This document shows positions 4,756 to 6,132 of a stretch of 36,362 bases of DNA, piece by piece; the stretch's first letter is position 1, and each line of letters begins with the position of its first letter. The translations under genes and the position numbers were made by a program. The notes below the pieces were generated by a model. That model worked only from the letters and a program-made list of their open reading frames with translations, did not search any database and was not told the DNA's origin. Source of the DNA: Omnitrophica bacterium RIFCSPLOWO2_01_FULL_45_10b (GTDB lineage: Bacteria; Omnitrophota; Omnitrophia; Omnitrophales; Danuiimicrobiaceae); contig MHFM01000009.1 in assembly GCA_001804205.1 (NCBI GenBank), forward strand, positions 61,588-97,949, read 5' to 3'.

Positions 4756-6132
4756 ATGTCGCTAAAAATTAGCTCAGTGAAAGGACGAGAAATTTTAGAT
4801 TCACGTGGAAATCCAACGGTTGAAGTAGATGTTGTTTTGAATGACGGTACGTTGGGCCGAGCTTGCGTTCCGAGTGGCGCTTCTACGGGTGAACACGAGG
4901 CAGTTGAACTTCGCGACGGTGATAAAAGCCGCTTCCTTGGCAAAGGAGTTCTCAAGGCGGTTCATAATGTGAACGAAAAAATTCAAAAAGCCATTGTTGG
5001 AAAGGATCCTGAGAAACAAGCTGAAATTGATAAGCTTCTTATCGAGTTGGACGGTACCGAGAATAAATCGTCTCTCGGCGCTAATGCGATTTTGGGTGTT
5101 TCGCTTGCTTCAGCTCATGCTGCTGCGAATTCCAAGAAGGTATCGCTTTTCCGATATCTTGGAGGAGCAAATGCAAATCTTCTTCCCGTGCCCATGATGA
5201 ACATCATCAACGGCGGCGTTCATGCGGATAATAATGTAGACCTGCAAGAATTTATGATCATGCCGTTTCGTGCCAAGCGATTTTCTGAAGCACTGAGAAT
5301 AGGTACGGAAGTGTTTCATCATCTTAAAAAAATTCTGCATCATCGCAAGCTTTCCACCGCCGTGGGAGATGAGGGCGGATTTGCGTCGGATCTCAAATCG
5401 AACGAAGAAGCGTTGGATGTGATTGTGGAAGCGATTGAGCAAGCAGGCTATAAGCCGGGTGCGGACATCAAAATTGCGCTTGACCCGGCAAGTTCCAGTT
5501 TTTTTGGGCATGACAAAACTGGTGCGAATTCAAATCCAGGTAAATATGTCCTGCGCGCCGAAAGTCAATCAGTGCCCGCCACAAATCGCGGCGGGTCCGC
5601 CGATCAGTGTGGCGGAAAATCCGCAGAAGAAATGGTTGAGTTTTACGCGAGGCTTTGCGAGCGTTACCCGATCTTTTCAATTGAAGACGGCCTCAGCGAA
5701 GATGATTGGAATGGTTGGCGGAATTTGACCGATCGATTGGGCAAAGAAGTTCAGCTTGTGGGGGATGACCTTTTTGTGACCAATGTCAAACGGCTTAAGA
5801 TGGGGATTGAGAAAAAAGTAGCGAACTCTATTTTAATCAAAGTCAATCAAATTGGAACCTTAACTGAAACCATTGAAGCGGTCAAGCTGGCCCACAAACA
5901 TTCCTATACGGCTGTCATGAGCCATCGGAGCGGAGAAACTGAGGATACTACCATTTCCGATTTAGCGGTGGCGCTCAGCACAGGGCAGATCAAAACAGGC
6001 TCTACTTCGCGGACCGATCGGATTGCCAAGTATAATCAATTGCTTCGAATCGAGGAAGAATTGGGATCTAAAGCCGTGTATGCGGGCACGGTTCTGAATA
6101 AAGAAAGTTTCGCCCGCGCATCCGCAAAATAA
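4756..6132 (+). CDS. eno: Enolase (phosphopyruvate hydratase) carrying an in-frame ~21-codon insertion
   Basis: [18 protein letters not shown] and [21 protein letters not shown] motifs. The AGGAGGG SD at 4741-4747 favours ATG 4756 over the track's TTG 4753. The extra segment is at 5554-5616. Confidence 0.95.

Follow-up and report, generated by a model that had tools for sequence, protein, structure and literature searches.

Repeats that are translated within essential genes are known mainly as the Rickettsia palindromic elements (RPEs) and as intragenic repetitive extragenic palindromic (REP) sequences of several species (PMC3733652). RPEs are palindromic repeats of ~100-150 bp, which encode 30-50 amino acids within genes of Rickettsia (Ogata et al. 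2000, as summarized in PMC10969869). Di Nocera et al. (2013, PMC3733652) described intragenic REP dimers carrying GTAG or CGTC tags, among them RPE-4/6, from species that include Opitutus terrae and Rickettsia conorii, and noted that in recB of two Xanthomonas species REPs occupy "about the same site". REPINs (REP doublets forming hairpins) consist of two short palindromes in inverted orientation with a spacer; they are essentially extragenic and tied to a single-copy REP-associated tyrosine transposase (RAYT) (PMC3116915, PMC3337134). MITEs of bacteria (for miniature inverted-repeat transposable elements) have been characterized as small non-autonomous structured repeats with occasional in-frame fusions to host genes (PMC10969869). 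Here we analyzed a stretch of 36,362 nucleotides from Omnitrophica bacterium RIFCSPLOWO2_01_FULL_45_10b (contig MHFM01000009.1, positions 61,588 to 97,949), subsequently designated the window, in which the enolase gene carries an in-frame insert of 42 nt at positions 5575-5616. It is highly probable that this insert is one copy of a family of short palindromic repeats, termed the double-hairpin module, and that it represents tolerated selfish or neutral DNA rather than an adaptation of enolase.

The host gene (positions 4756-6132, plus strand) encodes an enolase (phosphopyruvate hydratase) of 458 amino acids, whose nearest relatives are in many cases labelled Candidatus Omnitrophota or Omnitrophica. 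The protein possesses both the N-terminal and the C-terminal enolase domain (PF03952 and PF00113; Pfam, precomputed for the identical protein) and is similar over its full length to solved enolases, the best match in the Protein Data Bank (PDB) being 4a3r (E = 1e-166, residues 7-444). In an alignment of 46 sequences, residues E165, E206, D243, E310, D337, K362, H390 and K413 are invariant. The catalytic and metal-binding residues of yeast enolase are E168, E211, D246, E295, D320, K345, H373 and K396, and as judged from the alignment all catalytic residues of the window enolase are intact.

Comparison with relatives delimits the insert. About 115 of the 120 closest enolase homologues, all of them Omnitrophota-like, lack it and read ...SQSV|K(S/T)AxEM at the corresponding position of the alignment. 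The original prediction had proposed an in-frame insertion of about 21 residues. The in-frame insertion stands, but its length does not: the RAESQSV segment is ancestral, being present in essentially all insert-free close relatives and aligning with SGEGV of the B. subtilis enolase. The 14 extra residues, rich in Pro, Ala, Gly and Ser, fall exactly between a Val and a Lys codon, and therefore the true insert comprises 42 nt. The multiple alignment thus confirmed the insert and reset its boundary to codons 274-287. Syntenic insert-free loci (L004-L007, L122-L124) display the empty site as GTA|AAA, ATA|AAA or GTC|AAG, so that filled and empty sites compare at the codon level as GTN|module|AAR versus GTN|AAR with not a single duplicated base.

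On the plus strand the insert is composed of two GC-rich hairpins of 21 nt that abut without any spacer. Unit 1 (5575-5595) reads CCCGCC-ACAAATCGC-GGCGGG and has a 6-bp stem closed by a C..G pair and a 9-nt loop. Unit 2 (5596-5616), TCCGCC-GATCAGTGT-GGCGGA, likewise has a 6-bp stem and a 9-nt loop and is the reverse complement of unit 1 at the level of the family consensus. These boundaries agree between the homologue alignment, the empty sites and the family pattern described below. The likeness between GTGCCCGCCACAAATCGCGGCGGGTCCGCC (5572-5601) and the intergenic sequence GTCCCCGCCACAAAACGTTGGCGGGTCCTCG (4697-4727), from which the element had first been noticed, holds with ~25 of 31 columns identical by eye and one 1-nt indel, and the second stem that had been said to follow, CCGCC-N9-GGCGG, is located at 5597-5615.

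A structure model was computed with AlphaFold2 from 46 homologues (mean predicted local distance difference test (pLDDT) score 78, predicted template modelling (pTM) score 0.83). In this model residues 246-286 form a loop with pLDDT <50, flanked by a strand (238-244) and a helix (290-303). The insert (aa 274-287) is accordingly predicted to be part of a disordered loop at the surface, which connects a strand of the barrel to the helix that follows. This bears out the variable, tolerant segment that had been expected. This loop presumably corresponds to loop L3 of yeast enolase, a mobile active-site loop. Another enolase, P0049 (contig in ERZ27297570), has a different insert of 26 residues (MNGTFPNVPGSRSKPGTFGNVPSVPG) in the same loop in place of RAExxxV. 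It reads GTFPNVP...GTFGNVP, and the repeated GTF(P/G)NVP suggests another palindromic DNA element. These sequences make the loop look like a hotspot at which insertions are tolerated. One member of the window enolase cluster, P0125 (264 aa, on a 36-kb contig), terminates with ...GANSNPCAR ~15 codons ahead of the module and could be a frameshifted or broken variant close to the repeat.

Four other enolase lineages carry the module at the identical codon boundary, in the same orientation and with the same order of units. In L001 the insert reads PAKIPGG SAAHIGG and consists of two 21-nt units; in L002 (PATKHGGS...GG) an additional 24-nt hairpin is nested in unit 2; in L003 (PAKGA SAPGG) both loops are shorter; and in L131 and L134 (PAKGRGG SASGG) the second loop measures 3 nt only. 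A protein search using the 53 amino acids around the insert as query yielded no further enolase carriers. Each carrier is nearer to insert-free enolases (best identities 91%, 92%, 89%, 87% and 86%) than to the other carriers (78-84%). In a neighbour-joining tree the five carriers fall into five separate clades, and Fitch parsimony on the enolase tree requires five changes in 100 of 100 bootstraps. Between the window, L001, L002 and L003 the enolase genes have reached saturation at fourfold-degenerate sites (identity 0.33-0.42). Nonetheless, all eight such sites within the stems agree in the window, L001 and L002, whose loops differ. By this sequence criterion the conserved feature is the DNA hairpin rather than the peptide. 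Conservation of the peptide apart from the nucleotide repeat, which would have refuted the original prediction, was not found: the other carriers keep the hairpin stems and differ in peptide.

The module is not confined to enolase. Hairpins of the pattern CCGCC-N8-10-GGCGG number six in the window, compared with 0.13 expected; none of 100 shuffled sequences reached six. Two complete double modules are present, compared with zero expected. The pattern CCGCC-N8-10-GGCGG-R-TCCGCC-N8-10-GGCGGA was scanned against one genome per species of the Genome Taxonomy Database (GTDB), which retrieved at least 114 loci, more than 108 of them by the non-chance tally. Taxa were tallied from record titles, and all counts are lower bounds: at least 60 loci are labelled Omnitrophota or Omnitrophica (including Ca. 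Taenariivivens, which we take to belong to Omnitrophota), at least 20 derive from metagenome-assembled genomes (MAGs) labelled "Planctomycetales/-ia", at least 17 from Elusimicrobia, at least 5 from Candidate Phyla Radiation (CPR) bacteria or Edwardsbacteria, and at least 6 are unclassified. Six among the matches listed come from high-GC genomes and are likely chance matches. Two single Omnitrophota MAGs contain at least 7 and at least 9 loci, respectively. Since perfect stems were demanded, the number of copies is a minimum. The family is dispersed in Omnitrophota, Elusimicrobiota and a few CPR bacteria, and its copies lie mostly between genes.

The consensus of the module is (C/T)CCGCCACAAAGCGTGGCGG(G/A) followed by TCCGCCACGCTTTGTGGCGGA, with the loop consensus ACAAAGCGT in unit 1 and ACGC(A/T)(G/T)TGT, its reverse complement, in unit 2. 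With its two units being reverse complements at consensus level, the module is a spacerless inverted dimer. Units in the family measure 21 nt with stems of 6-8 bp, and variants of the module range from 30 to 66 nt. The closing base pair covaries: 63 of 65 copies have C..G, and 41 of 45 have T..A. Among 110 copies the right flank (+1, +2) is mostly A and the base at -1 is the closing C or T. Within a module, the two loops show no co-variation in excess of the consensus (4.72 versus 4.56 +/- 0.14), and loop pair 2-8, with mild covariation, is the sole loop pair showing any. The 12 nt on either side of the modules are not generally complementary (3.28 versus 3.36); in a looser fold test the flanks pair modestly above permuted flanks, and several modules are located in the loop of a longer hairpin.

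Modules often adjoin tRNA genes (L109, L023, L065, L092, L104, L114, L117). In L109 (~2843-2930, minus strand) a module interrupts a tRNA-like 5' fragment at the D-loop (GTAGCTCAGGC|module|GGTAGAGCA) just upstream of an intact tRNA-Thr gene. Interruption of a functional tRNA was considered for this case and rejected, as deletion of the module restores no tRNA detectable by ARAGORN. In the Elusimicrobia MAG JAHJSU01 (L062, L071, L085, L093, L101, L116; at least 13 loci among the matches listed) the units occur in longer tandem arrays (...GGCGGAAAACAACCGGCGGGTCCGCC...) rather than as isolated doublets.

Copies within genes were judged by stop-to-stop reading frames across the module and by Pfam domains flanking or spanning it. 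At least 12 of ~104 surveyed non-chance loci are located inside Pfam-supported genes, and the carriers of enolase and threonyl-tRNA synthetase (ThrRS) come on top. At least ten further gene sites contain the module in frame. In a GltD-like oxidoreductase (L028, L076) the encoded 14-aa peptide is one residue off the enolase peptide. The module encodes PAKKIGGSATSCGG in ThrRS (L046), PATKIGGSADKCGG and SATRIGGSAKNLGG at two distinct sites of valyl-tRNA synthetase (L077 and L049), SATRRGGSAKNFGG in MoeA (L063), SATNRGGPAKDYGG and a 14-aa peptide in a solute-binding (sugar-binding) protein (L082 and L105, respectively), PATKRGGSAKDFGG in a PAC2-family protein (L115) and SATLRGGSATSFGG in a multihaem cytochrome c protein (L119). 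A second frame is used in a GH57 protein (L064, PPQTVAGPPRSVAE) and in a UvrD-like helicase (L029, PPEISADPPRCVAE). All six frames of the consensus are free of stop codons as read from the sequence, and since the module is in addition 42 nt long, a copy that arrives in a permissive region of a gene is simply translated. The frame giving (P/S)AxxxGG-SAxxxGG dominates among the verified genic cases, none of which uses the Arg/Trp-rich third frame (RHKAWRVRHALWR). This bias fits selection on peptides that a protein can tolerate.

ThrRS provides a second recurrent site and evidence for recent change. Among the 120 closest homologues of ThrRS, ten have the module inserted after ...IEDK and before EFVLKPMNCPGH; part of these ten group as a clade, and the rest stand apart. 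Two ThrRS proteins, P0128 with and P0219 without the insert, are 99.5% identical, and their contigs (L136 and L137, respectively) align over 7.7 kb with 19 mismatches, all of which are confined to two patches that differ in presence of the module. In thrS (~3771-3826), a 57-nt stretch of L136, made up of ATACCGGATGACAAA and the 42-nt module, stands where L137 has the 12 nt GTCGAAGATAAA. The second patch, in the spacer from trkA to trkH (~7295-7400), is a long hairpin, which houses a module in its loop in L137 but not in L136, and whose arms differ between both contigs at three compensated pairs. No target duplication is seen at the filled/empty ThrRS pair. Module sites change while nothing else in 7.7 kb does, i.e. 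turnover is ongoing, and the changes look like block replacement and not like clean cut-and-paste. An ORF similar to LAGLIDADG_3 (1941-2615) is located just upstream of thrS in both contigs.

How does the module relate to the systems known so far? As in RPEs, a palindromic repeat occurs both between genes and in frame in unrelated housekeeping genes, with many genes affected per genome group, and the protein surface accommodates the encoded peptide, in enolase at the predicted disordered loop. However, at 42 bp and 14 amino acids the module falls well short of the ~100-150 bp and 30-50 amino acids of RPEs; its hosts belong to Omnitrophota and Elusimicrobiota, whereas those of RPEs are obligate intracellular Rickettsiales; and it is built as a spacerless double hairpin. 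With intragenic REP dimers it shares the nature of stem-loop repeats of 20-40 bp, often arranged as inverted dimers, of which some are translated in known genes. In contrast to these it lacks a GTAG or CGTC tag at either end, its units abut, the inserts amount to 10-22 residues here as compared to 20-30 in REP dimers, and no associated tyrosine transposase was found in the window or, by a weak search with two query sequences (IS200 and IS608), in ~1 Mb of module loci. In behaviour the module resembles the intragenic REP dimers even more closely than the RPEs. Opitutus belongs to the PVC (Planctomycetes-Verrucomicrobia-Chlamydiae) group, as do Omnitrophota.

Like REPINs, the module comprises two short inverted palindromes able to form either two small hairpins or a single long one, and its dispersed copies differ between close relatives. 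It is a dispersed stem-loop palindrome in the size range of REPs (20-40 bp) and an inverted pair forming a larger hairpin as in the REPIN doublet, but the spacer is missing and the copies are not restricted to extragenic positions. Moreover, a REP-flanked RAYT was found neither among the window genes nor, by the same weak search, in the ~1 Mb of module loci. The module is small, structured and of the non-autonomous type as MITEs are, and it likewise occurs in frame with host genes, but it generates no target-site duplication, has no terminal repeats around a unique core, is palindromic as a whole and remains far below the typical size of a MITE. In the literature searched, no paper reported the sequence of the module or such elements in Omnitrophota. 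Taken together, the original prediction, an intergenic palindrome inserted in frame and tolerated, is upheld by the empty sites, the non-coding copies and the disordered loop, but has to be enlarged: the element is a spacerless double hairpin, it belongs to a phylum-wide family translated in many genes, it occupies one and the same site in at least five non-sister enolase lineages, and it has precedents in intragenic REP dimers (PMC3733652).

If the module is tolerated selfish or neutral DNA, its copies may spread as hairpin-forming single-stranded DNA or by templated copying between repeats, as has been proposed for REPs and REPINs. Filled and empty alleles could then be swapped by recombination, and the module would persist within genes only where 14 flexible residues do no harm. 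Several points weigh against this account. The ThrRS difference is a 57-nt block in exchange for 12 nt, so that simple cut-and-paste fails there. Translation of the insert is something we infer from the intact frame. GTAG, CTAC, CGTC and GACG tags are absent from the flank base counts of 110 copies. The perfect-stem pattern of the census cannot gauge how well stems are conserved across the family. Finally, neither a transposase nor another mobilizing gene is present in the 36-kb window, whose genes are all housekeeping genes, and phmmer detected no IS200/IS608-like Y1 transposase among all ORFs of the ~1 Mb of module loci, a weak search with two query sequences.

A bolder version, which we put forward tentatively and regard as rather unlikely on present evidence, holds that the module is an active 42-bp element mobilized in trans with a site preference, that it entered the enolase boundary at least five times and the ThrRS boundary several times, and that its mover lies outside the known GTAG-REP/RAYT systems. 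A GIY-YIG nuclease was considered as candidate mobilizer and discarded, as only three further matches occurred in the ~1 Mb of module loci and no clear link emerged. The small stand-alone GIY-YIG ORF in the window (6636-6944) is located near enolase and overlaps the start of a tRNA gene at 6906. In L001 enolase-divIC is followed by a homologue, and a GIY-YIG gene was also called on the contig of P0049, but none in the loci L004-L007 and L124, which lack the insert.

The same findings can be read without any dedicated enzyme. Modules might arise and spread by template switching during replication or by ectopic gene conversion between GC-rich palindromes, an explanation that we consider possible though doubtful. 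It accounts for the replacement of 12 nt by 57 nt in the near-isogenic pair and for the concerted change of both arms of the intergenic hairpin (three compensated pairs) upon gain or loss of a module. That no target duplication, tag or transposase was found is likewise in its favour, as is pairing of module flanks above that of permuted flanks in the looser fold test (-7.06 versus -5.82 +/- 0.27 kcal/mol). However, template switching normally copies nearby sequence, yet the consensus of the module is common to several phyla, and ectopic conversion requires flanking homology, which is missing between unrelated genes.

A further question concerns the history of the enolase site, for which we lean slightly towards repeated insertion at the same position. 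The carriers hold different subtypes of the module (9-nt or 3-nt loops, one with a nested 24-nt extra hairpin), and for this reason separate donors are favoured over erosion of one copy. Alternatively, one ancient insertion in the ancestor of the enolase clade could have been inherited vertically, with the stems kept by selection and the module lost precisely in most lineages. This scenario has a minor but real share of the probability. It would readily explain why all five carriers agree in codon boundary, orientation and unit order. One subset of the ThrRS carriers (P0148, P0150, P0163, P0204, P0218) does group as a clade, and vertical persistence over very long periods is reported for REPIN populations (bioRxiv 10.1101/2021.07.10.451892). 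Then again, a single gain requires 22-36 scar-free losses, the enolase carriers never pair as sisters in the 100 bootstraps, and all insert-free loops have exactly the same length. The small rest of the probability, once both histories are accounted for, falls to recombinational spread.

Less probable, and in our view improbable, is a function of the hairpin as a nucleic-acid signal within the coding region, e.g. in slowing of ribosomes, RNA processing or as protein-bound DNA. Synonymous sites in the stems are conserved and the closing pair covaries between C..G and T..A, as such a role would predict. Folded as RNA, the window insert forms a single long hairpin of -26.1 kcal/mol (z = -2.65), with similar values for the inserts of L001 and L003. 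But the fold of L002 is no better than shuffled sequence (z = -0.6), and no Rfam family matches the module (window at gathering scores; eight loci at E <= 1). Its copies occupy many unrelated genes and intergenic sites without a common context, most enolases and ThrRS proteins do without it, and conservation of the stems is equally expected if the element needs its hairpin for copying.

Even less credible is an adaptive protein feature such as a moonlighting or binding loop, with the peptide under selection. The peptide is unchanged in the variant enolase P0126, which differs elsewhere, and no nucleotide difference exists over six assemblies of the window gene. In addition, the same loop region holds an internal plasminogen-binding motif in streptococcal enolase, which an adaptive explanation may likewise invoke. 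However, the loop residues are wholly different among carriers (TNR/DQC, KIP/AHI, TKH), and constancy is limited to the P/S-A...G-G residues that the stems encode, invariably with the same codons. The same DNA moreover occurs in non-coding regions and, read in either of two frames, within unrelated proteins, and the ~115 insert-free relatives of 120 evidently dispense with the peptide.

An assembly artefact, or a mere chance likeness to the intergenic sequence, can practically be dismissed: although a short metagenome contig (L133), chimeric precisely at the 5' edge of the module, demonstrates that the repeat can mislead assemblers, the window enolase gene recurs with zero mismatches in six independent assemblies, including NCBI GCA_001804055.1, shuffled sequences never match the observed number of hairpins, and four other enolase lineages have the module at the same site. 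Contig L133 (1-1138; Ga0209541_10346742) comprises tRNA-Met, a tRNA-like start GGGTAGCTCAGTC, an identical module and the 3' part of enolase, the latter being 99.9% identical to window positions 5569-6607. It reflects either misassembly via a second, near-identical module close to a tRNA gene of the same genome or a rare rearrangement.

Besides the enolase copy, the window harbours a second complete double module, TCCGCC-N9-GGCGGA + TCCGCC-N9-GGCGGA at 3400-3441, which had been overlooked before and was recognized by the family pattern. It lies between the CCCC and GGGG arms of a composite palindromic repeat (GTCATTGCGAG...CTCGCGATGAC) at 3384-3494 (plus strand; RNA fold -61.4 kcal/mol, z = -5.8), which encodes the last ~40 codons and the stop codon of the PurN ORF (2796-3527). 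This formyltransferase ORF has 243 aa as compared to 197-216 aa in relatives, and its Pfam domain ends at aa 182. A composite repeat of the same type with one hairpin unit inside is located upstream of enolase (4597-4733, plus strand; RNA fold -64.9 kcal/mol, z = -4.9). Relatives free of this repeat have a spacer of 26-30 nt between the PEMT-like gene and enolase, in comparison to ~173 nt in the window. Both composite repeats share the layout GTCATTGCGAG ... GCGAAGCAATC ... GATCGCTTCG ... CTCG(C/T)GATGAC and are nested, the small hairpins being their variable side arms. A simpler relative, GTCAT(C/T)CCC..., is found at 23634-23662 and 25163-25191.

The hairpin scan located the single unit that had originally served for comparison, CCCGCCACAAAACGTTGGCGGG, at 4699-4720. 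Two related hairpins had been proposed at 19567-19590 and 25252-25271. The first one is perfect (CCCGCCAAAGATCGTTGGCGGG, 19568-19589, between ruvA and ruvB), but the second one is degenerate, reading GGCGA instead of GGCGG (TCCGCCACAAAGCGTGGCGAGA, 25251-25272), and is part of a larger palindromic stretch with a tRNA gene downstream.

The window contains further repeats. A MITE-like element of 109 nt is present in two copies of 94% identity (17472-17580 and 21829-21937). It has terminal inverted repeats of 15-18 bp (TCCCGTTAGAACTC...GGAGTTCTAACGGGA; RNA fold z = -5.0), and its final bases (GGGATGA) provide the ATG of the next gene, yebC-like at 17577 and ybbR-like at 21934. A relative of this element resides in L001 between the PEMT-like gene and enolase (~5865-5980). 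In addition, two tRNA genes each have a copy of their 3' end ~150 nt downstream (6952-6990/7102-7140 and 12909-12947/13057-13095), resembling the attachment-site copy that a small insertion beside a tRNA gene leaves behind.

Palindromic repeats are usually regarded as intergenic, and here they are translated in a large uncultivated phylum whose members are mostly free-living or episymbiotic. With only 14 codons, the element turns up in enolase, in two tRNA synthetases, in MoeA and in further genes, a new example of palindromic DNA that adds loops to proteins. In practical terms, modules inflate "hypothetical" peptides, lengthen ORFs as in the tail of PurN, and can break or chimerize metagenome assemblies as in L133. 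The near-identical contigs and the recurrent boundary provide natural before-and-after pairs for the study of repeat movement and of the gain of loops. If the module is indeed mobilized in trans, it would constitute an ongoing generator of surface-loop insertions in essential proteins of Omnitrophota and Elusimicrobiota.

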